Of a stretch of 45,370 bases of DNA, positions 1 to 45,370 are shown piece after piece. The translations under genes and the position numbers were made by a program. Origin of the DNA: a virus; the IMG/VR virus record IMGVR_UViG_3300045988_070668, positions 1-45,370 of that record. One strand, 5' to 3'. Within the stretch, counting starts at the first letter, position 1. Every line of letters begins with the position of its first letter. The notes beneath the pieces were generated by a model. It was not told the origin of the DNA, did not search any database, and worked only from the letters and a program-made list of their open reading frames with translations.

Positions 1-141
1 ACGGACAAGAATGGAGGTGAAATAAATGTCCCCAAGACCAAAATCAGATAAATCTAAGCACAATAGGTTTGAGCTTCGCCTTGATGATGAGATGAATGAG
101 TTGTTAGAGGAGTGTTCTGAAAGGCTTCAAACGACAAAAAC
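1..141. repeat. Terminal direct repeat, copy 1; identical to 45230-45370 (circular-assembly overlap)
   Basis: Base-by-base comparison shows acggacaagaatggaggtgaaataaatgtcc...caaacgacaaaaac at both ends of the window. The repeat cuts through a promoter and the 5' part of an ORF. Confidence 0.95.
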
Positions 142-196
142 AGAAGTAATCAACAGAGGTATTCGGCTGGTTAAATCTGAATTGGACAAAAAATAG
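26..196 (+). CDS. Ribbon-helix-helix (Arc/CopG-like) small DNA-binding protein, 56 aa (RHH-1)
   Basis: ATG at 26 lies 8 nt after GGAGGTG. The translation is MSPRPKSDKSKHNRFELRLDDEMNELLEECSERLQTTKTEVINRGIRLVKSELDKK, a basic N-tail followed by a beta-strand (FELRLD) and two helices, typical of the RHH fold. It is below the 60-aa cutoff of the ORF track. It is a paralogue of 36802..36981. Confidence 0.75.
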   Translation: MSPRPKSDKSKHNRFELRLDDEMNELLEECSERLQTTKTEVINRGIRLVKSELDKK

Positions 197-254
197 GAGG
201 TTCCCTCCCTGGAAAGTCGGAACCTCCTAAAAACCTCACCGCATTGGATTTGGT
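188..254 (-). ncRNA. Predicted ~67-nt antisense RNA (sar-like) of immI-like module 1
   Basis: A minus-strand promoter (TTGAAA-17 nt-TATACT, 289..261) is followed by a 10-bp hairpin (AGGAGGTTCC/GGAACCTCCT, 228..195) and a T6 tract (193..188). The transcript would be complementary to the 3' end and stop codon of RHH-1 and the downstream spacer. Confidence 0.4.
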
Positions 255-260
255 AAATCT

Positions 261-289
261 AGTATACCATTTCCTTTGCGGAATTTCAA
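261..289 (-). promoter_or_regulatory. Sigma-70-type promoter for antisense RNA 1
   Basis: Minus-strand -35 TTGAAA (289..284), 17-nt spacer, -10 TATACT (266..261). Confidence 0.45.
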
Positions 290-310
290 TAGGCAAAGGA
301 GAGTTTTAAG

Positions 311-583
311 ATGGAAACAACAAATGCAGAGTTCGCAAGAGAAGTTTATGCAAATTCTCTTTCAGTAGCCCAGATAGCGCCGATAATAGAAGCCGAAAAA
401 TTCTCTCAATATGCGGACACGGCTGAATATGATTTTTGTGAAAGGATGGCAAGAATCTACGGCTGTGTTCCGAAAAATGGAGACGAATGGAATCTTATGA
501 AATTCCTTGTGACGCTTTATCACTATGGGACTGTGCAAGGTGTGAGAGATGAGAGAAAAAAGAGAGGGAGGTATACTAGATGA
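311..583 (+). CDS. Hypothetical protein (90 aa), middle gene of immI-like module 1
   Basis: ATG is preceded by AAAGGAGAG. The stop overlaps the next start (ATGA at 580-583). No recognisable domain. Confidence 0.6.
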   Translation: METTNAEFAREVYANSLSVAQIAPIIEAEKFSQYADTAEYDFCERMARIYGCVPKNGDEWNLMKFLVTLYHYGTVQGVRDERKKRGRYTR

Positions 584-1320
584 ATGAGATTATTAAGATA
601 AACTATGAAACAGAACAGCCAACAGTATCAGCCAGGGATTTGCATGACGGGCTAGAGATTAAAACGGCTTTTAAAGACTGGTTTCCGAGAATGGCTGAGT
701 ATGGTTTTGAAGCCGGAAAGGACTTTTGCTCAAAAATGAGCGAAAGTACCGGAGGCCGTCCAGCTATTGATTATCAGATTACCGTGGACATGGCAAAGCA
801 GATTTGCATGATACAGCGTTCCGAGAAAGGCCGCCAGTATCGCCAGTATTTCCTTGACCTGGAAAAGGCATGGAATACGCCGGAGCAGGTCATGGCGAGG
901 GCTTTGAAAGTAGCCGGACAGACCATTGATAAGCTGAAAGGGGAAAATGCTGGACTTCTGGAAGATGTTCAGCGCATGAGGCCGAAAGAGATTTTCGCCG
1001 ACGCTGTGGCGACGAGCCATTCCTCAATCCTTATTGGAGACTTGGCGAAGCTGATTAAGCAGAATGGCGTTGACATTGGACAGAAGCGGTTATTTGCATG
1101 GATGAGGGGCAACGGTTATCTGATTAAGCGAAACGGTTCTGACTGGAATATGCCGACGCAGAAAAGCATGGAAATGGGGCTGTTTGAAGTCAAGGAGAGT
1201 ACAGTGAACAATCCGGACGGTTCCGTGAGGATAAACAAGACCACCAAAGTCACCGGAAAGGGACAGCAGTATTTTATTAACAAGTTTCTGAACGGCGCAG
1301 AGGATAAGGAAGCATCATAA
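580..1320 (+). CDS. Phage antirepressor (AntA/AntB-like N-terminal domain plus KilAC/ANT C-terminal domain)
   Basis: N-terminus VSARDLHDGLEIKTAFKDWFPRM...MAKQICMIQRSEKGRQYRQYF matches the AntA/B type. C-terminus IFADAVATSHSSILIGDLAKLIKQNGVDIGQKRLFAWMRGNGYLIKR...PTQKSMEMGLF matches the KilAC type. Confidence 0.85.
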   Translation: MNEIIKINYETEQPTVSARDLHDGLEIKTAFKDWFPRMAEYGFEAGKDFCSKMSESTGGRPAIDYQITVDMAKQICMIQRSEKGRQYRQYFLDLEKAWNTPEQVMARALKVAGQTIDKLKGENAGLLEDVQRMRPKEIFADAVATSHSSILIGDLAKLIKQNGVDIGQKRLFAWMRGNGYLIKRNGSDWNMPTQKSMEMGLFEVKESTVNNPDGSVRINKTTKVTGKGQQYFINKFLNGAEDKEAS

Positions 1321-1338
1321 TTGAATAGTCAAAGCAGA

Positions 1339-1375
1339 AAGCTACTAGCCAGTATTTGGTTAGTAGCTTTTTTTA
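1339..1375 (+). terminator. Rho-independent terminator after the antirepressor
   Basis: Stem AAGCTACTA/TAGTAGCTT followed by a T-run (1368-1374). Confidence 0.7.
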
Positions 1376-12366: not shown

Positions 12367-12378
12367 AGGAGATTGATT

Positions 12379-13143
12379 ATGGAAGAGAACAAAAAAGACG
12401 TATTACCGCTCGAAGGAGAACCGCTGACCGCGCCGCAGATATCTGAACCAGTTGTGAACGCCCTGGCCGCCGCGCTGAATAAGATTGAGACGTATGTACC
12501 CACACAGTACATTAATGATGGGCCGCCGGACATTGATGCGGAACACCTCAACCACGCAGAACAGGCTATCATGCGGGTCACGAATTTAGCCAACGGAGCC
12601 GCCGATGCAATCGCCGCATTGCAATCCCAGGTTACTCAGCTAAATAATAATTTGGGATATTACATTACATCGACAGATGATTTTTCCCATACCTTAATAG
12701 GAGGAGCAGCACAAAATATCACCCTAAACTCAAAAATTACGCTCGAACAATACGCGAGAATTTTATTCCTTAACTATCCAGGTAGTAATGATGGTGCCTT
12801 ACTGGCTATTGCTCCTGGGAATAAGATAATTACTGCTTTTAGAAATAATGGAGTTTGGGAAGAAAAATCCTCGCATTTCATTGTCACAAGGTCCGATTTA
12901 GTCGCTGGAACAGCGAAATTCCCAAAAACTTCTGTTGGGACACAAGAAATAATTATAGATTTCCCATATGAAATGAGAACGGTTCCTGTTGTCCTGGTAT
13001 CATGGAAAGACACTGCGCGTATATTTGATCACATGGACGGATTAGTTGTCACAGAAATCGGAAAAACAAGGTTTAAGGTTGCAAGTAAACGAAAAATAGA
13101 AAGTTATGACTGGAGCTTTTCGTATCTTGCTATTTGTAGATAA
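12379..13143 (+). CDS. Tail fibre / receptor-binding protein with an invertible C-terminal domain (currently expressed variant A)
   Basis: ATG at 12379 lies 7 nt after AAGGAG (the ORF track starts at TTG 12373). Last gene of the tail operon. Codons AALQSQVTQLN are encoded by IR-L. The C-terminus (VVLVSWKD...VVTEIGKTRFKV) resembles an H-type-lectin-like fold. Confidence 0.7.
   Translation: MEENKKDVLPLEGEPLTAPQISEPVVNALAAALNKIETYVPTQYINDGPPDIDAEHLNHAEQAIMRVTNLANGAADAIAALQSQVTQLNNNLGYYITSTDDFSHTLIGGAAQNITLNSKITLEQYARILFLNYPGSNDGALLAIAPGNKIITAFRNNGVWEEKSSHFIVTRSDLVAGTAKFPKTSVGTQEIIIDFPYEMRTVPVVLVSWKDTARIFDHMDGLVVTEIGKTRFKVASKRKIESYDWSFSYLAICR
12614..12653. repeat. Inverted repeat, left copy (IR-L) of the invertible fibre segment
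   Basis: ccgcattgcaatcccaggttactcagctaaataataattt matches the reverse complement of 13671-13710 at 37 of 40 positions. The perfect core is 22 bp (12625-12646). Confidence 0.9.
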
Positions 13144-15048: not shown

Positions 15049-16623
15049 TTAGAGCTCAACATAAAGGGTCTCCCCGTCCCAGACACACTTCTTTATTACT
15101 TCCCGGGCGATTGCATTTCTTTCGGCTGCCGTAAACCCATCAAAGTTTCGCATCTTCTCACTGATGATTTTTGCTCGTTCCTGTGTGGATACCTGGGCGG
15201 CAGAGCGTTTCCGTTCCTCCGACGCAGCTATGGTATATTCCCGGTTTAGGGCCTGTATCTCCAGGTCAAGCCGTTCCATTTCTGCGATGATGTATTTTGC
15301 CGCAGCAGAGTTTGAGGCCAGGGCCAGGGAGGCGGCCAGTTTCTCAATTTTTGCTTCACTGGATTTTATCTGGCTGGAAATCTTTTTGGGATCGGGGCCG
15401 GCGGTGGTGTCCCGGTCCTTCTGGGCGTACCGGAGGATGGCGGTATTATCTTGCTCGACTGTGCGGAGGATATCAACGACCTTTGCGTCCAGGGTCTCGC
15501 ACTTGATCTGTCTCATATCACACACATCCGCGCCTTGTCGTGTCCGTTTGGGGCAGTAATATGCGGAGGAGACGGACCCGTCCACTTTTTGCTTGCGTCC
15601 GATTGACATAAGCGCGCCGCACTTGCACCGGATCACGCCTTTTAAGAGAGGAGACGGCCAGCGGGCGGATTTAAAGCGTTGGTTCTGGGCAAACCGAGCC
15701 TGTACCGCAAGCCACTTTTCGGCTGGCATAAAGGGCTTGTGGACGCCCAGACACACCCTCCACTGGTCCGGGGGCTGTAATTCGTGTTTCTTATTTTTCT
15801 CCGTGGTGCGTCCGTAGACCATGACACCGACAGAGCCGTCCCATTTTTCGCGGGGGGATCCCGGGTCCATGATGCATCCTTTGGCCTGGTAAAAGTCGTA
15901 TACCTCCGGTGTAGCCTCTACGCAATATGGCATGGTCAAGATTTTGTGGAGCTGCGAAGCAGAGAAAAAACCTCCCCGCTGCGTCCGGATGCCTTTGTGC
16001 TTAAACTGCGTCTCCATCTTTTGTATGCTGCCGCCAAACTGGATAAACGAGTCAAAAATCCAGGTCACATATCTGGCCCCCTCTGGATCCGGCGTAATGG
16101 CACAGTGCTTTTTCCCGTCCACGATGATTCGGTCCCGGACGTATCCGACAGGCGGGTTCCCACCGACCCAGTAGCCTTTTTTTGCAAGCCCGATCATGTT
16201 GTCGGTCACTCTGGCGGCGATGGTCTCCCTCTCCATCTGGGCAAATACTACGGTCACATACATCATGGCCCGGCCAATGGGTGTGGATGTATCAATGTTT
16301 TCTTTGATGGATACGAATTTCACCCGATGCTCCTCCAGGGTGGCGTAGATATTGGCAAAATCCCGGACATCCCTGGACAGCCTGTCCAGTTGGTAAACGA
16401 TAAGGACATCTGCGCCGCCGGACCGGATATCCTCCAGAAGCCGCTGTAAGTCCGGGCGGTTAGTGTTGGCCCCAGTGAAATCCTCGTCGGAGTAGGCCCG
16501 GAAGTCGTCCACCTGGCCGGCATATTTGACATTGACGTAATCCCGGCACATACGGAACTGGTTATCCACGGAATCGGAGCGGTCAGAGTACACAGATTTA
16601 CGTCCATAACAACAGAATATCAT
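15049..16623 (-). CDS. Large serine recombinase (524 aa), presumed integrase
   Basis: N-terminal resolvase/invertase catalytic domain (YGRKSVYSD...DNQ...NRPDLQRLL...LIVYQLDRLSRD...ERETIAARV). This is followed by a recombinase domain, a Cys-rich zinc-ribbon region (CKCG...YYCPKR...C) and a coiled-coil tail. Confidence 0.9.
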   Translation of the reverse strand: MIFCCYGRKSVYSDRSDSVDNQFRMCRDYVNVKYAGQVDDFRAYSDEDFTGANTNRPDLQRLLEDIRSGGADVLIVYQLDRLSRDVRDFANIYATLEEHRVKFVSIKENIDTSTPIGRAMMYVTVVFAQMERETIAARVTDNMIGLAKKGYWVGGNPPVGYVRDRIIVDGKKHCAITPDPEGARYVTWIFDSFIQFGGSIQKMETQFKHKGIRTQRGGFFSASQLHKILTMPYCVEATPEVYDFYQAKGCIMDPGSPREKWDGSVGVMVYGRTTEKNKKHELQPPDQWRVCLGVHKPFMPAEKWLAVQARFAQNQRFKSARWPSPLLKGVIRCKCGALMSIGRKQKVDGSVSSAYYCPKRTRQGADVCDMRQIKCETLDAKVVDILRTVEQDNTAILRYAQKDRDTTAGPDPKKISSQIKSSEAKIEKLAASLALASNSAAAKYIIAEMERLDLEIQALNREYTIAASEERKRSAAQVSTQERAKIISEKMRNFDGFTAAERNAIAREVIKKCVWDGETLYVEL

Positions 16624-17445: not shown

Positions 17446-18087
17446 TTATTTTACATCACTCTGGAATGCCATCGCTTTTCCTAAAACATGAACCTGGTTT
17501 AATTCATTTCCAGAGAAAATCAAATCTTCATAGGCTGGATTTTCCGGTTTCAGAATCAACAACCCCTTATCTGGATAATAATAGAGTCGCTTCAGTGTAG
17601 CTTCGCTATCGTTGTTTACTACAACAGCAGCGATCTCTCCATTTTCTACCATATCCTGTTTTCGTATAAATACTATGTCTCCGTCTAAAATTCTAGCCCC
17701 AACCATGCTGTCACCGGAGGCCCTTAAGCAGAAGTCTGCGTTAATGTTTGTGCCCGCCATGACATAACTCTCCCTATCTTCATTCGTATATTTTGGTACC
17801 CCACAGGCTATATCTCCCAACATCGGGAACCGCTTTAATTCAATAGGGTGAACATTGTTTAGAGAAATAATTTCTTCATCTGTAGATTCTTGCCAACCCA
17901 TAAGGTAAGCGGGGGATACACCTAATGCCACAGATACTTTTAAAATTTTATCTCTCTTCATGTTTGCAATTATCCCGTTTTCCCATTTTCGGACTGTACT
18001 TTTTCCGACCCCAACAATATTTCCTAACTCTTCTAAGGTCATTCCCTTTTGCATCCGCAATTCGTGGATCTTTTTTCCCATTTCCAT
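17446..18087 (-). CDS. CI/LexA-type repressor (XRE HTH plus S24 peptidase domain)
   Basis: HTH MTLEELGNIVGVGKSTVRKWENG. S24 motifs SGDSM (catalytic Ser) and TLKRL (Lys). Confidence 0.9.
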   Translation of the reverse strand: MEMGKKIHELRMQKGMTLEELGNIVGVGKSTVRKWENGIIANMKRDKILKVSVALGVSPAYLMGWQESTDEEIISLNNVHPIELKRFPMLGDIACGVPKYTNEDRESYVMAGTNINADFCLRASGDSMVGARILDGDIVFIRKQDMVENGEIAAVVVNNDSEATLKRLYYYPDKGLLILKPENPAYEDLIFSGNELNQVHVLGKAMAFQSDVK

Positions 18088-18260: not shown

Positions 18261-18467
18261 TTGGATAAATATAAACTTGAATATGAGATGAAATCAAGAG
18301 GAATAACTATTGAAAGGTTATGCCATGACTTGAAGATGAGCCGCTCCGCATTTTATAGAAAATGTAACGGAATTTCTGAATTCACCCAAAGTGAAATTCA
18401 GAACATAGTGGATTATATTGGCCTGGATTCTCCAATGGGAATTTTTTTTACCGAAAAAGTGTCTTAA
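18261..18467 (+). CDS. Cro-like HTH regulator (68 aa)
   Basis: TTG start after AAAGGAGGGGAG. HTH ITIERLCHDLKMSRSAFYRKCNG. Divergent from the repressor. Confidence 0.7.
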   Translation: MDKYKLEYEMKSRGITIERLCHDLKMSRSAFYRKCNGISEFTQSEIQNIVDYIGLDSPMGIFFTEKVS

Positions 18468-18496: not shown

Positions 18497-19240
18497 ATGA
18501 ACGAATTACAGATTATAAATGTTGATGGAGTAGAGTGCTATGAAAAGGACGGCACAGCTTATTTGAAACTGGAAACAGTGGCCAGAGGGCTTGGTTTTAC
18601 GGAATCGAAAAACGGAAAAGAATATGTCATGTGGCGCAGAGTAGACGGATATTTAACGGAATTATGTTTCGGCACTTCTGCCGAAAGGCCAGAATTCATT
18701 CCGGAAAACATATTTTACCGTCTTGCCATGAAAGCCAAAAACGAAGTGGCTGAAAAGTTCCAGGCAAAAGTGGCAGATGAGATTATCCCATCAATTCGAA
18801 AGACCGGAGGTTATGTGCTCCAAGGGCTTTCAAAAGAAATGAAGGCCATACTCATGATTGACCAGAAGCAAGTCAAGATGGAAGAACGCCTTGACCACCT
18901 GGAATATGATATTCCGCTTTATGGTTCAGAAGCAGACGAGCTGTCTAATCATGTAAAACGAATGGGAGTTGCAATCTTAGGCGGCAAGAGGTCAGAAGCG
19001 TACAATGACAGCAAAATACGGGACAAGGTATATCGAGACATTTACGGCTGCATTAAACGCGAATTTGGGATCTATGACAATGAAGGAAGGCCGATTTCTT
19101 ACAAGGCATTGAAGCGTAAATATCTGGCTGACGCTCATGAGTTGATAGATTGCTATGAGGCGCCCACTTATTTATCCGAACTTATTGATAATGCAAATGC
19201 ACAGCAGAGAATGTATGGAGGCGAACATGAGAGAGATTGA
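18497..19240 (+). CDS. Bro-N / ORF6C-type antirepressor-like protein
   Basis: FIPENIFYRLAMKAKNEVAEKFQAKVADEIIPSIRKTGGY matches Bro-N. The C-terminus GGKRSEAYNDSKIRDKVYRDIYGCIKREFG...YKALKRKYLADAHELI is ORF6C-like. Confidence 0.7.
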   Translation: MNELQIINVDGVECYEKDGTAYLKLETVARGLGFTESKNGKEYVMWRRVDGYLTELCFGTSAERPEFIPENIFYRLAMKAKNEVAEKFQAKVADEIIPSIRKTGGYVLQGLSKEMKAILMIDQKQVKMEERLDHLEYDIPLYGSEADELSNHVKRMGVAILGGKRSEAYNDSKIRDKVYRDIYGCIKREFGIYDNEGRPISYKALKRKYLADAHELIDCYEAPTYLSELIDNANAQQRMYGGEHERD

Positions 19241-19711: not shown

Positions 19712-19825
19712 ATGTATATTGACCCGTTTTGGGCCGGTGTGGCTGCTACGCTCCTGGCAGAGGTGGCAGCAATCACAGCATTAGTTATCATTGAGATAAA
19801 AAAATCAAGCGGAGGTAAAGAGTAA
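19712..19825 (+). CDS. Small membrane peptide (37 aa)
   Basis: ATG after AAGGAGGAAATGGAG. One hydrophobic helix. The stop overlaps the next ATG (TAATG). Confidence 0.4.
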   Translation: MYIDPFWAGVAATLLAEVAAITALVIIEIKKSSGGKE

Positions 19826-20514
19826 TGTGCCAGTTTAAGAGCGGGATTATCTTAAAAAATAAAATCGTTGTCGCTCCAGGAAAGGATGACAGCCATTCAA
19901 GCCTCCTGGAATCCCTCGGAATCCAGGACGACTACATCGGAGTATCTAAGACGTTTGTACGAGCGGAATTGGTTCCCAAAAATAATGAGTGGTGGATCAG
20001 CCCGGAAGAACACCCGGAAAAATGGACGTTTGTGGTTGACCAGGATATTTTGCCAGAATGGTTTTACAGAGAAGAATCGGAAAAAGAATTCCGGGCGGCT
20101 GTCTGTACTTGGTGGAAGTCTCATGTACTTGTAGACCAGAAATTGGAAAAACTCGAATCTGGATATTATAAATTGAAACGCTGCGAGGTTAGGAAGCTGC
20201 TTAACGATGTAATGGCTGATCTGTATGATTCCCAGGTCGGCGTGATGCGGGGAAGCTCCCAGGTCGGCGAGATGTGGGAAAGCTCCCAGGTCGGCGAGAT
20301 GCGGGGAAGCTCCCAGGTCGGCGTGATGCGGGAAAGCTCCCAGGTCGGCGAGATGCGGGAAAGCTCCCAGGTCGGCGTGATGCGGGAAAGCTCCCAGGTC
20401 GGCGAGATGTGGGGAAGCTCCATAGCGAAAGACTATAAAAATTATCCTAAAATTAAAATCTGGGTATCCCCAGAAGGAAACTTTGAAATGCTTACATATG
20501 TAAATAAAAACTGA
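19825..20514 (+). CDS. Hypothetical protein with seven tandem 9-aa repeats (SQVG[V/E]M[R/W][G/E]S)
   Basis: 229-aa ORF. The N-terminal 135 aa are non-repetitive (MCQFKSGIILKN...). The repeat block is at aa 136-198. Confidence 0.65.
   Translation: MCQFKSGIILKNKIVVAPGKDDSHSSLLESLGIQDDYIGVSKTFVRAELVPKNNEWWISPEEHPEKWTFVVDQDILPEWFYREESEKEFRAAVCTWWKSHVLVDQKLEKLESGYYKLKRCEVRKLLNDVMADLYDSQVGVMRGSSQVGEMWESSQVGEMRGSSQVGVMRESSQVGEMRESSQVGVMRESSQVGEMWGSSIAKDYKNYPKIKIWVSPEGNFEMLTYVNKN
20230..20418. repeat. Tandem repeat, 27 bp x 7, in frame
   Basis: The unit is tcccaggtcggcg[t/a]gatg[c/t]ggg[g/a]aagc. 24 of 27 positions are invariant across all seven units. Confidence 0.95.
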
Positions 20515-20638
20515 ATAAAAAATCCCCATTAGTACCGGAAATACCAACGGGGAAAGGCACAATAGCTAAGTGAGGTAGCCATTGCAGAAATTATCATACC
20601 ATAATTTCCTGCGATTGGCAAGAACAAATGTTCGTTAA

Positions 20639-20908
20639 ATGGAGGGAATTATGGATAAAGAAAATAAAGTATCCTGGGACAACTTGGAGCAGCTTTTTGC
20701 AGTAGAGGTGATTGAGCAGTCCAAAAGAAACGCAAAGAGGTGGTTTGTGGCATGGCTTGTCACTCTGGCGGCGCTGATCGGGACAAACGCAGCATGGATC
20801 TATGTGGCGCAGTCTTATGAGTATGTATCCCAGGATGGAAGCGGCCAGAACAACATTAACACTGGCACACAGGGAGACATCAGACATGGGACAGAAAATG
20901 AGAATTAA
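20639..20908 (+). CDS. Small membrane protein (89 aa)
   Basis: One TM segment (WFVAWLVTLAALIGTNAAWIYV). RBS GGAGGG. Confidence 0.5.
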   Translation: MEGIMDKENKVSWDNLEQLFAVEVIEQSKRNAKRWFVAWLVTLAALIGTNAAWIYVAQSYEYVSQDGSGQNNINTGTQGDIRHGTENEN

Positions 20909-36516: not shown

Positions 36517-36717
36517 TTGAAGGTATATGATTTCACGGTGTTAGAACTGAATTATTTCCGTACATACTGCAACTTCACAGCAGACGAGCGCCAGCTTTTT
36601 GAACTCCGGGCGCAGAACATCCCGCTGGAAAGATGTGCAGAAATGATGAATGTGAGCGTATCCACTGTGAAAAGAATGAGCCGGAGAGTGAATAGCAAAA
36701 TTATAAGGGTGTGCTGA
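36517..36717 (+). CDS. Small sigma-70 region-4-like HTH regulator (66 aa)
   Basis: ADERQLFELRAQNIPLERCAEMMNVSVSTVKRMSRRVNSKI. Confidence 0.45.
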   Translation: MKVYDFTVLELNYFRTYCNFTADERQLFELRAQNIPLERCAEMMNVSVSTVKRMSRRVNSKIIRVC

Positions 36718-36737
36718 AAAAAATTTTAAATTACCTC

Positions 36738-36778
36738 TTGACTTTTTATGTGTTACCATTTAATATAAATGTGTAACC
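36738..36778 (+). promoter_or_regulatory. Strong promoter of immI-like module 2 with a 10-bp repeat straddling the -10
   Basis: TTGACT (36738-43), 17 nt, TAATAT (36761-66). Repeats ATGTGTTACC (36748-57) and ATGTGTAACC (36769-78) are 21 bp apart. Confidence 0.6.
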
Positions 36779-36801
36779 AAAAAAGGAAAGGAGAGAGGGA
36801 A

Positions 36802-36981
36802 ATGTCACCAGCAAAGGGACGACCGCCATCAAAAGACCCAAAGAGGAATGATACCAGAATACGGCTTACAGATTCGGAAGCTGAAAAACTGGAATATTGC
36901 TCCCAAAAAACAGGAATGACTAAGGCAGACATTATCCGAAAGGGAATTGATATGGTCTATGCTGAGGTTACAAAAAAATAG
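36802..36981 (+). CDS. Ribbon-helix-helix (Arc/CopG-like) protein, 59 aa (RHH-2)
   Basis: MSPAKGRPPSKDPKRNDTRIRLTDSEAEKLEYCSQKTGMTKADIIRKGIDMVYAEVTKK has the same architecture as RHH-1. ATG after GGAGAGAGGG. Confidence 0.75.
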   Translation: MSPAKGRPPSKDPKRNDTRIRLTDSEAEKLEYCSQKTGMTKADIIRKGIDMVYAEVTKK

Positions 36982-37038
36982 AGTGTTGCTACCCTCGACA
37001 AGTACGCCAACACTCTACGCAAGAAGTTTCCTTCTTAT
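36972..37038 (-). ncRNA. Predicted ~67-nt antisense RNA (sar-like) of immI-like module 2
   Basis: Minus-strand promoter TTGAAA-17-TATGAT (37072..37044). A 9-bp hairpin AGAGTGTTG/CAACACTCT (37016..36980) is followed by T7 (36978..36972). The geometry is the same as in module 1. Confidence 0.4.
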
Positions 37039-37043
37039 GAAAT

Positions 37044-37072
37044 ATCATATCATAAGAGGGAACTTCTTTCAA
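37044..37072 (-). promoter_or_regulatory. Sigma-70-type promoter for antisense RNA 2
   Basis: Minus-strand -35 TTGAAA (37072..37067), 17-nt spacer, -10 TATGAT (37049..37044). Confidence 0.45.
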
Positions 37073-37098
37073 GACGAATCGAAAGGAGTTTTTTATTT

Positions 37099-37452
37099 AT
37101 GAGCAAAGAACAGCACACCTCTAACGAGATAAAGGTAACGGAGATTATTGAAGAACTGAAAGAGGAACTTCGCAAGAAAGATGGTTTATTGGAAGATTGT
37201 TTGAGGGATTTGAAATACACCCAAAAAGCATTACTTATGATAAAGGATAAGTATGAATGGGGGAGTGTTCCCGATGTGGCGGAGGTTTATAAGGTTGCTA
37301 CAACTCCATGTCCTATAAAGAACTGTACAGAGAAAGAAATACGCTCATGGGAGTATGTATTGGGGTATGAGGAAATCATGTTCCTAATTAATGTTGCGTT
37401 TGACTATTGTTTTAGAACAGAAGAAGAAATTTCACGGGAGGTATGCAGATGA
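37099..37452 (+). CDS. Hypothetical protein (117 aa), middle gene of module 2
   Basis: ATG after GAAAGGAG. Overlaps the start of the antirepressor. Confidence 0.55.
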   Translation: MSKEQHTSNEIKVTEIIEELKEELRKKDGLLEDCLRDLKYTQKALLMIKDKYEWGSVPDVAEVYKVATTPCPIKNCTEKEIRSWEYVLGYEEIMFLINVAFDYCFRTEEEISREVCR

Positions 37453-38207
37453 ATGAACTTGTGAATACAGCAACACAGACACCGATTGAGGTAGCTTTAG
37501 GGATTGACGAGAACGGAATGACAACGGCGAGGGCATTATTTTCTTTTCTTGGCATGAGCAGAAATAACTATTCCAGGTGGTTTAGAAACAATCTTATAGA
37601 TAATGAGTTTGCAGAGGAAAATGTTGATTATTTCCCATTCCTCACTAATGAGGAATGCGGAGGACAGGCATCTCAAGACGCAAAATTGACCGCCAGTTTT
37701 GCCAAGAAACTCTCCATGATGTCAAAGAGCGAAAAAGGCGAACGGGCCCGTCAGTATTTCGTCAAAGTAGAGGACGGAATGAAAGAGCTTGCAATCCGAT
37801 TTCAGAATATGTCCCCGGAACTGCGGGCGGTTCTGGTAGTAGACAGGCGCGTAACGAAGATTGAGGAAAAGACGGACGGACTGCGGCAGGAATTTGAAGA
37901 TTTCAAGAACGACATGCCTATTCTGGGCGTAGAGGAAGGGAAGATTACCACAGCAATCCATCGGAAGGGCGTGGAGTGCCTGGGTGGGAAACAGTCCAAT
38001 GCGTACAACAATAAGAGTTTGCGTGCTACGTTATATTCGGATATGCACCGCCAGCTTAAAAGGGAGTTTGGCGTAAGTACATACAAGGCAATCAAGCGGA
38101 ATCAGACCGATTTAGCAGTACGGATCATCGAAGCATATAAGCCACCGCTAGTGATTGCAGAGCGTATTGAAAGTGAAAATGCACAGGAAAATTTATTTGT
38201 AGGATAA
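37443..38207 (+). CDS. AntA/AntB-type antirepressor with an ORF6C-like C-terminal domain
   Basis: MTTARALFSFLGM...YSRWFRNNL...AKKLSMMSKSEKGERARQYF matches AntA. GGKQSNAYNNKSLRATLYSDMHRQLKREFGVSTYKAIKR matches ORF6C. Confidence 0.8.
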   Translation: MQMNELVNTATQTPIEVALGIDENGMTTARALFSFLGMSRNNYSRWFRNNLIDNEFAEENVDYFPFLTNEECGGQASQDAKLTASFAKKLSMMSKSEKGERARQYFVKVEDGMKELAIRFQNMSPELRAVLVVDRRVTKIEEKTDGLRQEFEDFKNDMPILGVEEGKITTAIHRKGVECLGGKQSNAYNNKSLRATLYSDMHRQLKREFGVSTYKAIKRNQTDLAVRIIEAYKPPLVIAERIESENAQENLFVG

Positions 38208-38224
38208 CTTATTTGATACTTTAG

Positions 38225-38259
38225 GGAGCCTTAAATGAACTGTTAAGGCTCCTGTTTTT
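38225..38259 (+). terminator. Rho-independent terminator after module 2
   Basis: GGAGCCTTAA / TTAAGGCTCC stem followed by TGTTTTT. Confidence 0.75.
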
Positions 38260-38267
38260 ATGCCATA

Positions 38268-38999: not shown

Positions 39000-39668
39000 C
39001 TATACAGGTTTTCTTTTTCCATTTACAGGGGTTTGAAGTATTTCTTCTGTACTCCATCCCCTTTGGTAACGATGTTGTAAAATGCCACGTTTTATACAAA
39101 GTTCCTTTGACCATTGAGATAATGTCATTGATTTTCCATTAAATTTCAATATAACATTATCCCTTTTGTTGTTTGATTGCTGCGATATAGTTGCCCATCT
39201 GCAATTTTGCGGGCAATAATCTCCATTGTTGTCGATTCTATCAAGACTGTGCCTATAAGGTTTTCCTCCGATAGAATCAGACCATTCAACAAAATTTGAA
39301 AAACTGTGCCATTCATCACAAACTTTTATTCCTCTACCTCCATAGTGGTAATAAGCTTTGTTGTTTGGGTTTTCACAACGGTTAATCATGTTTTTCCAGG
39401 TTCCATATAATGGATGTTTACTGCACCCGGGATATGATCCGGCAAGAGACATTCTCAAACATCCGCAACTTTTGACAACGCCTTTTTTAAATTGAGATGG
39501 AGTAATTCTCGTTTCGTTACCACAGTCGCATATACATTTTAAATACCAGCACTTATCACTTGGTAATCTTTCAGAGATTCCTATAACAGTTAAATGATGT
39601 ACTTTTTTTCCAATGTAATCATTGATTTTAAAATGCGGATGTTGTGGAATTTGGATAGATTTTTGCAT
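39000..39668 (-). CDS. HNH/AP2-like DNA-binding or homing-endonuclease-like protein (222 aa)
   Basis: Motifs YGTWKNMINRC...YYHYGGRGIKVCDEW..F.NF..W...LDRIDNNGDYCPQNCRWAT..QQSNN. AT-rich and on the opposite strand to all neighbouring genes. Confidence 0.45.
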   Translation of the reverse strand: MQKSIQIPQHPHFKINDYIGKKVHHLTVIGISERLPSDKCWYLKCICDCGNETRITPSQFKKGVVKSCGCLRMSLAGSYPGCSKHPLYGTWKNMINRCENPNNKAYYHYGGRGIKVCDEWHSFSNFVEWSDSIGGKPYRHSLDRIDNNGDYCPQNCRWATISQQSNNKRDNVILKFNGKSMTLSQWSKELCIKRGILQHRYQRGWSTEEILQTPVNGKRKPV

Positions 39669-39790
39669 AAAAATAACACCTGTCCTTTCAGTGTGTCGGT
39701 CCTACCAATAAAAGTGTGGAAATTGCTAGGACTTGCAACTTTCGCCCCGTCGGGCTATCCACACATTATTATTATAACATAATTTAAAAG

Positions 39791-39817
39791 AATGTACATT
39801 ACTGTTTGCGCAAACAG
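39791..39817. promoter_or_regulatory. Two adjacent perfect palindromes upstream of the Gly/Cys-rich cassette
   Basis: AATGTACATT (39791-800) and CTGTTTGCGCAAACAG (39802-17), about 30 nt upstream of ATG 39846. Confidence 0.35.
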
Positions 39818-42005: not shown

Positions 42006-42034
42006 CGCCCGGTTCGCTACCCCCGGGCGTTTTT
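42006..42034 (+). terminator. Hairpin plus T-run immediately upstream of the tRNA
   Basis: CGCCCGG-ttcgctaccc-CCGGGCG-TTTTT. Confidence 0.5.
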
Positions 42035-42106
42035 GGGAAATAGCTCAGTAGGTAGAGCGGCGGCCTTATAAGCCGCGTGCCAGAGGTTCGATTCCTCTTT
42101 TCCCAA
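42034..42106 (+). tRNA. tRNA with anticodon UAU (Ile, reads AUA)
   Basis: Manual cloverleaf. Acceptor TGGGAAA/TTTCCCA. D-arm GCTC-agtaggta-GAGC. Anticodon arm GCGGC-cTTATaa-GCCGC. Variable loop gtgcc. T-arm AGAGG-ttcgatt-CCTCT. No CCA is encoded. Confidence 0.8.
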
Positions 42107-42184
42107 CTACCTCGCCCGTGGTTTATCGGGCTTAATCCATACCGCTGACGGGCGGTTAATTAATCACGTTTAGGAGGATAAAGA

Positions 42185-45192: not shown

Positions 45193-45235
45193 TTGACATT
45201 CTTGTACGGACGTGTATAATTATAGATGTACGGAC
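45193..45235 (+). promoter_or_regulatory. Strong promoter of immI-like module 1 with a 9-bp direct repeat straddling the -10
   Basis: TTGACA (45193-98), 16-nt spacer ending in TG, TATAAT (45215-20). TGTACGGAC occurs at 45203-11 and 45227-35. Confidence 0.6.
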
Positions 45236-45370
45236 AAGAATGGAGGTGAAATAAATGTCCCCAAGACCAAAATCAGATAAATCTAAGCACAATAGGTTTG
45301 AGCTTCGCCTTGATGATGAGATGAATGAGTTGTTAGAGGAGTGTTCTGAAAGGCTTCAAACGACAAAAAC
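45230..45370. repeat. Terminal direct repeat, copy 2 (identical to 1-141)
   Basis: See copy 1. Confidence 0.95.
45255..45370 (+). CDS. Duplicate 5' part of the RHH-1 gene (same sequence as 26-141), truncated by the window end
   Basis: Lies inside the terminal overlap. It is not a separate gene. Confidence 0.9.
   Translation, partial: MSPRPKSDKSKHNRFELRLDDEMNELLEECSERLQTTK

Follow-up and report, generated by a model that had tools for sequence, protein, structure and literature searches.

A ribbon-helix-helix-antirepressor cassette of a temperate phage with a predicted convergent antisense RNA and a putative refolding mRNA leader

We analysed a 45,370-nt stretch of viral DNA, IMG/VR record IMGVR_UViG_3300045988_070668 (the whole stretch is called the window below), and focused on module 2 (positions 36738-38260), a cassette in which the gene for a small ribbon-helix-helix (RHH) protein precedes an antirepressor-type gene. 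A consensus scan located the operon promoter of module 2, TTGACT-17-TAATAT, at 36738..36766 on the plus strand, and homologous loci carry a TTGAC(T/A)...TATAAT promoter at the equivalent position. Two operator half-sites presumed to be bound by the RHH protein (RHH2), ATGTGTTACC at 36748-36757 and ATGTGTAACC at 36769-36778, were read from the sequence; these repeats are 10 bp each, 9/10 identical and 21 bp apart, and they straddle the -10 element. The genes that follow on the plus strand encode RHH2 itself (36802..36981, 59 aa, Pfam RHH_3 with E=2.3e-6), ORF117 (37099..37452), which matched no Pfam or PHROG family, and an antirepressor-type protein with AntA and ORF6C domains (37443..38207; Pfam E-values of 5.2e-13 and 1.2e-30, respectively). 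An intrinsic terminator, consisting of an 11-bp stem and then GTTTTT, closes the module at 38224..38260 on the plus strand. The first-pass annotation had listed these parts together with a minus-strand promoter and a hairpin with T7, and all of them were found at the positions it had given. For the antirepressor gene, the reading frame and its two domains stood, whereas the start is more likely to be the ATG at 37449 than the longest-ORF start at 37443, because the spacing of the Shine-Dalgarno (SD) sequence GGGAGG at 37436-37441 favours the former.

The minus-strand promoter, TTGAAA-17-(TG)-TATGAT (37072..37044), matches the consensus at 10/12 positions plus the TG and was the best promoter match in a 4-kb scan around module 2. 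Downstream of it lies a hairpin, H1 (TAGAGTGTTG / CAACACTCTA, 9-10 bp, 36979-36988 and 37008-37017), which abuts the RHH2 stop. On the plus strand, H1 is preceded by A7 at 36972-36978, which corresponds to T7 on the minus strand and overlaps the end of the RHH2 gene (TAG stop at 36979-36981). With A7 before it and no U-run after it on the plus strand, H1 is predicted to be an intrinsic terminator for the minus strand only; a role as plus-strand terminator was considered and rejected for the missing U-run. The geometry of this promoter and terminator predicts an antisense RNA of 66-67 nt (antisense RNA 2, minus strand, 37037/8 -> 36972), which would fold into a 5' stem-loop UAAGAAG-GAAA-CUUCUUG, a terminator stem-loop and U7 with -24.4 kcal/mol.

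The window contains another cassette of this kind, module 1 (26..1374, plus strand). Since positions 1-141 are repeated exactly at 45230-45370, the contig is circular or terminally redundant with a length of about 45,229 bp, and module 1 lies across the junction, its promoter and two TGTACGGAC repeats being located at 45193-45235. It comprises RHH1 (26-196, plus strand; 56 aa, 42% identity to RHH2), a 9-bp hairpin with T6 at the RHH1 stop, an antisense promoter TTGAAA-17-TG-TATACT (289..261, minus strand), a predicted antisense RNA (asRNA-1, 254->188, minus strand), ORF90 (311-583, plus strand, 90 aa), a gene for an AntA+KilAC protein (580-1320, plus strand) and a terminator (1338-1374, plus strand). 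The order and the spacings are equal in the two modules, and their nucleotide sequences are unrelated. Module 2 had been described as repeating the geometry of module 1 despite diverged sequence; indeed, a minus-strand promoter with 17-bp spacing and a hairpin with a T-run at the RHH stop are present both times. Furthermore, the stop of the small ORF overlaps the antirepressor start as ATGA in both modules (37449-37452 and 580-583). The cognate duplexes of the two antisense RNAs of the phage (-122 and -133 kcal/mol) were calculated to be far more stable than the cross duplexes (-38 and -39 kcal/mol), and the two RNAs are thus predicted to be mutually orthogonal, without cross-pairing. A role of the two modules in multi-input control or anti-immunity is speculation. 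Multiple or tandem modules per phage are common among the relatives.

The loci of RHH relatives were collected from IMG/VR and genomes, which gave 53 unique spacers, and the 165 nt following each RHH stop were scanned for the best sigma-70 match. A search seeded by RHH1 alone returned identical copies only. A minus-strand promoter match of at least 10/12 was observed in 39/53 loci and one of at least 9/12 in 50/53, whereas the plus-strand controls reached these values in 5/53 and 15/53, respectively, and dinucleotide shuffles reached 10/12 in 4%. The spacing was 17 bp in nearly all loci, often with an extended TG, and the most distant loci carry a perfect TTGACA-17-TATAAT. The predicted antisense start was always 55-90 nt from the hairpin abutting the RHH stop, and on the plus strand this hairpin was preceded by an A-run and lacked a following U-run. 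The predicted antisense RNAs of the relatives consist of a short 5' stem-loop, a terminator stem-loop and a U-tail. Altogether, about 50/53 loci retain the minus promoter with its 17-bp spacing, a terminator at the RHH stop and an RNA length of about 55-80 nt, and among these loci RHH identity falls to 35-40% and the operator repeats differ; in the exceptions (L010, L022, L077 and L112), the spacer is truncated or replaced. The A-run (T-run on the minus strand) is also kept in loci with an earlier RHH stop, which leaves the run outside the coding sequence (such as L011-13, L079, L084 and L103), and it is therefore not a by-product of C-terminal lysine codons.

Within the 45.2-kb genome of the phage, only 19 promoter matches of at least 10/12 were found. 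Five of the 19 have a hairpin and a T-run 35-110 nt downstream, and modules 1 and 2 are two of these five. The first-pass annotation had argued that the antisense element is not a chance occurrence. The excess of minus-strand promoters over the plus strand (39/53 versus 5/53) and over the shuffles (4%), together with the covariation of the hairpins described below, upholds this for the predicted RNA: an accidental element is very unlikely to judge from these sequences, and we are rather confident that the antisense RNA is real.

The loops of H1 are enriched for UUGG/CCAA in either RNA (29/44 versus about 10 expected); in 19 loci the UUGG belongs to the antisense RNA, and in 11 it belongs to the mRNA. 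The enrichment agrees with the rule, quoted in PMC4485353, by which a recognition loop of either partner RNA contains a YUNR U-turn. As a separate observation, the upper part of H1 is exactly inverted between the near-identical loci L096 and L097 (both 2660-2720), and a TACC(N)CCAAGT-like loop motif occurs in H1 across the family in either orientation. A possible origin of the inversion is template switching at the hairpin, loops with YUNR in one RNA or the other being selected.

In the mRNA, H1 is followed by a long hairpin, H2 (37021..37068, plus strand), which is composed of a decoy left arm (L, 37021-37040) and an anti-SD right arm (R, 37050-37068). The left arm is within the antisense target, the right arm is in the spacer of the antisense promoter, and the apical loop corresponds to the -10 element and start site of that promoter. 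The L:R duplex of module 2 has -19.1 kcal/mol (z=-5.1). When leaders were folded up to the antisense -35, H1 and H2 were formed in 24/24 leaders tested. In an unfitted MAFFT alignment of 16 leaders, 71% of the cells of H1 and H2 were paired compared with 62% in shuffles, and the covariation score was 0.329 compared with 0.215; 0/500 shuffles scored as high, and slid partners gave 0.10-0.18. A covariance model, R1, was built from this 16-leader alignment. It gave 43 hits at E<0.01 in the 53 sources and matched the window at 36972-37074 (94 bits) and 187-291 (28.3 bits). In the alignment of the 43 hits, which was fitted to the model and hence leans towards it, 82% of the cells were paired (57% in shuffles), 32/32 pairs showed compensatory double changes, and the score was 0.57 compared with 0.18 (slid controls, 0.10-0.15). 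For H1 in the same alignment, 10/10 pairs covaried and 90% of the cells were paired. No Rfam 15 family reached its gathering score in 36700-37150, the best matches having 12-18 bits against cut-offs of 42-100, and a scan of the whole window with Rfam showed only tRNA and borderline int-alpA matches, both of which are elsewhere.

The predicted antisense RNA 2, with its 5' end at 37037, starts 62 nt upstream of the ATG of ORF117 (AUG at 37099-37101) and 48 nt upstream of the SD (GGAG at 37085-37088). As the RNA stops short of both the SD and the AUG of ORF117, direct occlusion is excluded. Comparison of the homologues pointed to an alternative helix, H3 (37050..37102, plus strand), between the anti-SD segment 37050-37070 and the start region of ORF117, comprising its SD, the U-run and its AUG. 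The calculated energy of H3 in module 2 was -18.4 kcal/mol, with 4/4 nt of the SD and 3/3 nt of the AUG paired, and the duplex between R and the SD region (S) had z=-5.9. R is complementary to both L and S, and L resembles S. Among 40 unique loci, the mean energy was -19.1 kcal/mol for the L:R duplex (mean z -4.3 versus shuffled R) and -15.2 kcal/mol for the R:S duplex (mean z -3.4). The two duplexes use the same R nucleotides and are accordingly mutually exclusive. This triple pairing is kept with different sequences: AACUUCUUUC/GAAAGGAGUU in module 2, UCCUUUGC/GCAAAGGA in module 1 and CCUCCAU/AUGGAGG in the relative L024. When the antisense-complementary part was removed, R closed on the SD in 15/15 leaders of a first set; in a wider set, the SD was paired at 3/4 nt or more in 37/39 leaders. 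Furthermore, partition function calculation showed that masking of the antisense target lowers the probability that the SD is unpaired, P(SD unpaired), to 0.00 in both modules, the starting values being 0.78 for module 2 and 0.72 for module 1, and its family mean from 0.33 to 0.10.

Taken together, these folding results suggest an antisense-triggered switch among the decoy, anti-SD and SD segments as the mode of action, and we lean slightly towards it. The RNA would thus probably shut the antirepressor off by refolding the mRNA leader rather than by covering the ribosome-binding site. Several observations weigh against this reading. The loop of H1 is large (about 20 nt) for a terminator, and a simple terminator scan missed H1. 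RNAalifold predicted no pairs on the full-length MAFFT alignment of 39 leaders; we attribute this result to misalignment, namely register errors between subfamilies, and the narrower alignment and the covariance model worked. The SD of many relatives is predicted to be closed at equilibrium even without the antisense RNA, P(SD unpaired) being above 0.5 in only 12/39 leaders, and the median penalty for an open SD at equilibrium is 4.8 kcal/mol across the leaders. The ON state may therefore be only kinetic (co-transcriptional and metastable), or the switch may work differently in the loci with a closed SD. The covariation of H3, one strand of which is constrained by the SD, is modest (65.7% versus 60.6% paired), and its double-change pairs are no better than shuffles. 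Finally, the U-run after H3 is missing in a number of loci, which indicates that attenuation is not the common mechanism. In module 2, UUUUUUAUUU follows the SD-containing stem and is in part paired in RNAfold, and many relatives have no U-run; attenuation would be a possible extra in module 2 and not a shared feature.

Some of these points are also what would be expected if the antisense RNA were real and acted mainly through convergent-transcription interference with the operon promoter or through duplex formation, RNase III cleavage and decay of the mRNA, with H2 and H3 being incidental or serving for fine-tuning. Many leaders have the SD closed at equilibrium and the covariation of H3 is weak; in addition, the strong antisense promoter faces the operon promoter from about 300 bp away, and the full cognate duplex, at -122 kcal/mol, is very stable. 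However, the anti-SD:SD complementarity is significant in most loci and lies on nucleotides that also pair with the antisense-covered arm, and the decoy/anti-SD/SD triple persists in quite different sequences. We consider it unlikely that interference or decay is the main mode of action.

It was also considered that there is no antisense RNA, that H1-H3 work in cis alone as structures of the mRNA, for example to stabilise or process it, to sense temperature or to time the translation of the next ORF relative to transcription, and that the promoter hexamers are by-products of an AT-rich loop. H2 and H3 are features of the plus-strand RNA and could toggle unaided. The hexamers, however, keep the 17-bp spacing, often with TG, in about 50/53 loci while the plus strand is at chance, and they become a perfect promoter in the most distant loci; H1, moreover, is built as a minus-strand terminator, with an A-run before it that is kept outside the coding sequence and never a U-run after it. 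A purely cis-acting leader thus appears quite improbable. Equally, it is very improbable that the inverted repeat of H2 is a DNA operator through which dimeric RHH2, ORF117 or a host factor regulates the antisense promoter, although it is centred on the antisense -10 and start site in every locus, a classic operator position, because its arms are unlike the RHH operator repeats, stay similar (AGAAGTTTCC...) where the RHH operators differ, change by compensatory substitutions instead of conserving a motif and tolerate G-U pairs, which points to RNA and not DNA, and because the small downstream ORFs are not homologous between loci; such an operator could hold alongside the RNA switch.

On the basis of the antisense-triggered leader switch, we propose the following course of events. 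The sigma-70-type promoter would drive RHH2, ORF117 and the AntA/ORF6C antirepressor, and RHH2 would shut its own promoter via the two 10-bp repeats on either side of the -10 element, which are 21 bp apart. The strong convergent promoter in the RHH2-ORF117 spacer would give rise to the antisense RNA of about 66 nt, ending at the terminator over the RHH2 stop, and this RNA would pair with the 3' end of RHH2, H1 and the left arm of H2, but not with the ribosome-binding site of ORF117. On the free nascent mRNA, H2 would form first and the SD would stay open. Once the antisense RNA is on the left arm, the right arm would be freed to close the SD and the AUG in H3, and the U-run by H3 in module 2 may also attenuate transcription. 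Because of the ATGA overlap, the antirepressor would be translationally coupled to ORF117 and be switched off together with it. The net outcome would be a burst of antirepressor on DNA entry, before RHH2 and the antisense RNA build up, and a double lock later. The transcription of the antisense RNA, the binding by RHH2, the direction of the regulation and the repressor that the antirepressor targets are presumed in this scheme. The sequences themselves show the anatomy of the cassette, its conservation throughout the family, covarying H1 and H2 helices and complementarities that exclude one another. As a whole, we judge this proposal of a self-contained 'antirepressor moron', locked by RHH2 and an antisense RNA through leader refolding, to be moderately probable.

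Regarding the proteins, more than 120 homologue clusters were found for RHH2, all of which are unnamed or labelled 'predicted DNA-binding protein' and none of which is characterised. RHH homologues with the DTRIRL beta-strand are accompanied by ATGTGTAACC twice, and in other RHH subfamilies this position is taken by different repeats. The operator repeats thus change with the RHH subfamily yet stay around the -10 element, as autoregulation predicts. ORF117 has nine homologue clusters, which are unnamed, and no loci encoding its relatives were found in viral contigs. Its AF2 model is a helical hairpin of two long helices (pLDDT 74), which showed no significant match in a comparison with the PDB (best E 1.4).

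A census of 82 ORFs downstream of RHH homologues showed Bro-N in 13, AntA in 9, ORF6C in 9, Rha in 5, KilAC in 4 and ORF6N in 4. The cargoes AntA+ORF6C of module 2 and AntA+KilAC of module 1 belong to families annotated as antirepressors. A toxin-antitoxin system with an RHH antitoxin was rejected, because the downstream genes are mostly of the antirepressor type and no toxin family was matched. An oriT/relaxosome, suggested by a weak MobC_2 match and one 'NikA' label, was likewise rejected, as the MobC_2 match is below the cut-off and no relaxase is present. Separately, one RHH-linked cargo ORF in the relatives matches Tad2-like (Thoeris anti-defence 2; E=2.8e-25), and the cassette may, judging from this match, also gate counter-defence genes.

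The distribution of the cassette was also examined from the RNA side, using a strict pattern of the H2 arm, the -10 and the -35 as the query against IMG/VR. This pattern was found in at least 116 stretches. An RHH-type ORF of 44-82 aa ended just before H1 in 62/68 unique elements, and Bro-N, AntA, Rha or ORF6N was carried by 24/34 non-redundant large ORFs downstream. Several phages have two or three cassettes, some in tandem. The same layout was observed in four cultured phages, all matched by the covariance model. The match had 65 bits in Streptococcus phage Javan362, where the cassette lies between terminase and portal, 43 bits in Fusobacterium phage Funu2, whose cargo is Rha, 25 bits in C. 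difficile phiCD211, in which a repressor and an anti-repressor are annotated, and 23 bits in S. pyogenes Javan527. These results indicate that the cassette belongs to a large, uncurated family. We see an even chance that it represents a widespread, undescribed class of phage riboregulator, in which a cis-antisense RNA and a decoy/anti-SD/SD leader, acting by refolding and not by occlusion of the ribosome-binding site, would gate antirepressor-type genes (Bro-N, AntA, Rha and ORF6N) behind small RHH repressors in temperate phages whose hosts are Clostridia, streptococci, C. difficile and Fusobacterium, the units being modular, mutually orthogonal and often several or in tandem per phage.

Further observations were made on the architecture of such elements. 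In the tandem cassettes (L063:85-1564, L008:2525-3629, L111:1266-2595, L084:1593-2668 and L064/L080), an RHH gene and an RNA element are followed by a second promoter, RHH gene and RNA element and then by the cargo. Some RNA elements follow a different RHH-like family (M..YFKERRK.. / ..KTFSVAV..). In the window itself, a third look-alike at 20508-20641 follows the stop of a 229-aa repeat protein, not of an RHH gene. It consists of an A-run, a hairpin TCCCC...GGGGA and a minus promoter TTGCCA-17-TATGAT (20621..20593) with an inverted repeat around the -10, and its segment CATAATTTCC... pairs with the SD and AUG of an 89-aa ORF (20639..20908). The covariance model R1 gave no match to this element. 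The 229-aa protein (19825-20514) has tandem SSQVGEMRE-like repeats, and a long opposite-strand ORF (19897..20562) mirrors the repeat.

The window has a GC content of 46% and originates from a temperate gut phage. The genes for its serine integrase and its LexA-like CI repressor, the latter with an S24 peptidase domain, are both on the minus strand, at 15049-16623 and 17446-18087, respectively. Genes for the large terminase, portal, minor head protein, major head protein and head-tail adaptor are present. Module 2 is located between the minor head protein and capsid genes and module 1 between the connector and tail genes; flanked by structural genes, both modules are therefore independently transcribed inserts in the late region. 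The DNA similarity to annotated phages was limited to a single match of 95 nt, which is unannotated. A scan of genome contigs for RHH relatives matched just two metagenome-assembled genomes, from an uncultured Eubacteriales and a Lachnospiraceae, and the host assignment is therefore approximate.

Several neighbouring features were also noted. Directly upstream of module 2, a 66-aa sigma-70-region-4-like protein is encoded at 36517..36717 on the plus strand (PHROG 'RNA polymerase sigma factor', E=9.5e-8), possibly a late-gene regulator. A third protein of the antirepressor type has Bro-N and ORF6C domains, and its gene (18497..19240) comes after a small Cro-like helix-turn-helix ORF (18261..18467); being divergent from the CI repressor, this gene lies in the early lytic operon and outside any RHH cassette. 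A tRNA-Ile with the anticodon TAT lies among the head genes at 42034-42107. In the tail-gene region, a promoter TTCTCA-16-TATAAT followed by a hairpin and T-run was found on the minus strand at 12861-12979, antisense to the ORF 12373..13143. Another candidate with a promoter and a hairpin/T-run, at 39667-39798 on the minus strand, coincides with the borderline int-alpA match (39701..39765; 35.9 bits, cut-off 35.8) and has an HNH endonuclease gene (39000..39668, minus strand) immediately downstream.

Antirepressors determine the time at which a prophage is switched on and are also able to induce other resident prophages, and little is known about their silencing in phages of the gut and of Gram-positive bacteria. 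If the proposal is correct, one compact RNA-plus-RHH lock would be placed on hundreds of antirepressor genes in phages associated with the gut, the oral cavity and pathogens, including those of Streptococcus, C. difficile and Fusobacterium, with a logic convergent with that of P22 immI and pMV158 copy control and a different RNA mechanism. It would then also provide annotation pipelines with an uncurated RNA family, offer a handle on prophage induction and cross-talk in the microbiome, and supply synthetic biology in Gram-positive bacteria with orthogonal repressor-plus-antisense modules of about 120 nt.

P22 immI has been described as an 'ant moron' in the late/structural region (PMC2629481). 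In the P22 sequence X01916, arc occupies 370-531 and ant 600-1502, the ant SD being located at 586-589, and the Rfam sar model (RF00262) matches 599..532 with 97.8 bits, showing that sar covers the ant SD. The phage cassette shares with immI an RHH repressor as the first gene, with a presumed operator over the operon promoter, a cargo of the antirepressor type, a convergent antisense RNA of 66-69 nt (predicted in the cassette) with two stem-loops whose end is right after the RHH stop codon, and the moron position inside the late/structural region. In contrast, the 5' end of sar is one base ahead of the ant ATG, and sar extends over the ant SD, whereas the predicted RNA of the cassette starts 62 nt before the ATG; since it remains short of the SD, its mode of action must differ from that of sar. 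The spacer between the RHH gene and the next gene is 117 nt in module 2, where it is occupied by the antisense promoter, compared with 68 nt in P22, and, unlike in immI, a small ORF is present between the RNA and the antirepressor, which would be translationally coupled to it. The hosts also differ from those of immI, being Firmicutes and Fusobacteria. In 36700-37150, the sar model gave no match, either at its gathering threshold or with E<=10, and no minus-strand RHH ORF that would correspond to a divergent, Mnt-like second repressor adjoins the module 2 promoter, the upstream gene 36517..36717 being on the same strand. The term 'immI-like' used in the first-pass annotation thus holds as a functional analogy and not as membership, given the lack of a sar match, an RNA short of the SD and no divergent Mnt-like repressor.

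In the plasmid pMV158, the RHH autorepressor CopG comes first, and the target of the countertranscript RNAII, a 48-nt RNA with an unstructured 17-nt tail, is immediately upstream of the repB initiation signals (PMC4485353). No three-way decoy/anti-SD/SD pairing is described for pMV158 in PMC4485353. Common to both systems, although predicted for the phage, are dual control by protein and RNA in a Gram-positive setting and a short countertranscript that arises from the spacer between the RHH gene and the cargo and is composed of a 5' segment, an intrinsic terminator hairpin and a U-tail. In both, the RNA target is upstream of and not on the initiation signals; the target in module 2 ends 48 nt before the SD. 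The geometry of pMV158 is thus closer to the cassette than that of P22 immI. The cargo of pMV158 is a rolling-circle Rep initiator on a plasmid, in contrast to ORF117 and AntA/ORF6C in a phage, and RHH2 matches Pfam RHH_3, not RHH_1 as CopG of pMV158 does.

The refolding proposed here resembles, by analogy, the attenuation in pT181/pIP501 and the SR4-induced SD sequestration in bsrG. In these systems, an antisense RNA on an upstream leader segment frees a downstream segment to form an inhibitory helix, which is a terminator in pT181/pIP501, where plasmid rep genes are controlled, and sequesters the SD in bsrG/SR4, a type I toxin system. In the cassette, the inhibitory helix would hold both the SD and the AUG, and a U-run follows it only in some members. 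In the literature that was searched, no description of a cassette of RHH protein, antisense RNA and antirepressor in Gram-positive phages was found. What is new here is an RNA start 62 nt before the next start codon combined with three mutually exclusive leader segments, unlike the SD masking by P22 sar. The core of the initial interpretation, an autoregulated RHH-antirepressor cassette analogous to P22 immI with a short, predicted convergent antisense RNA taken to be functional rather than accidental, is supported by about 50/53 loci and by covarying hairpins. The cassette is best described as a functional analogue of P22 immI and of pMV158 copG-RNAII-repB, and not as a sar homologue.

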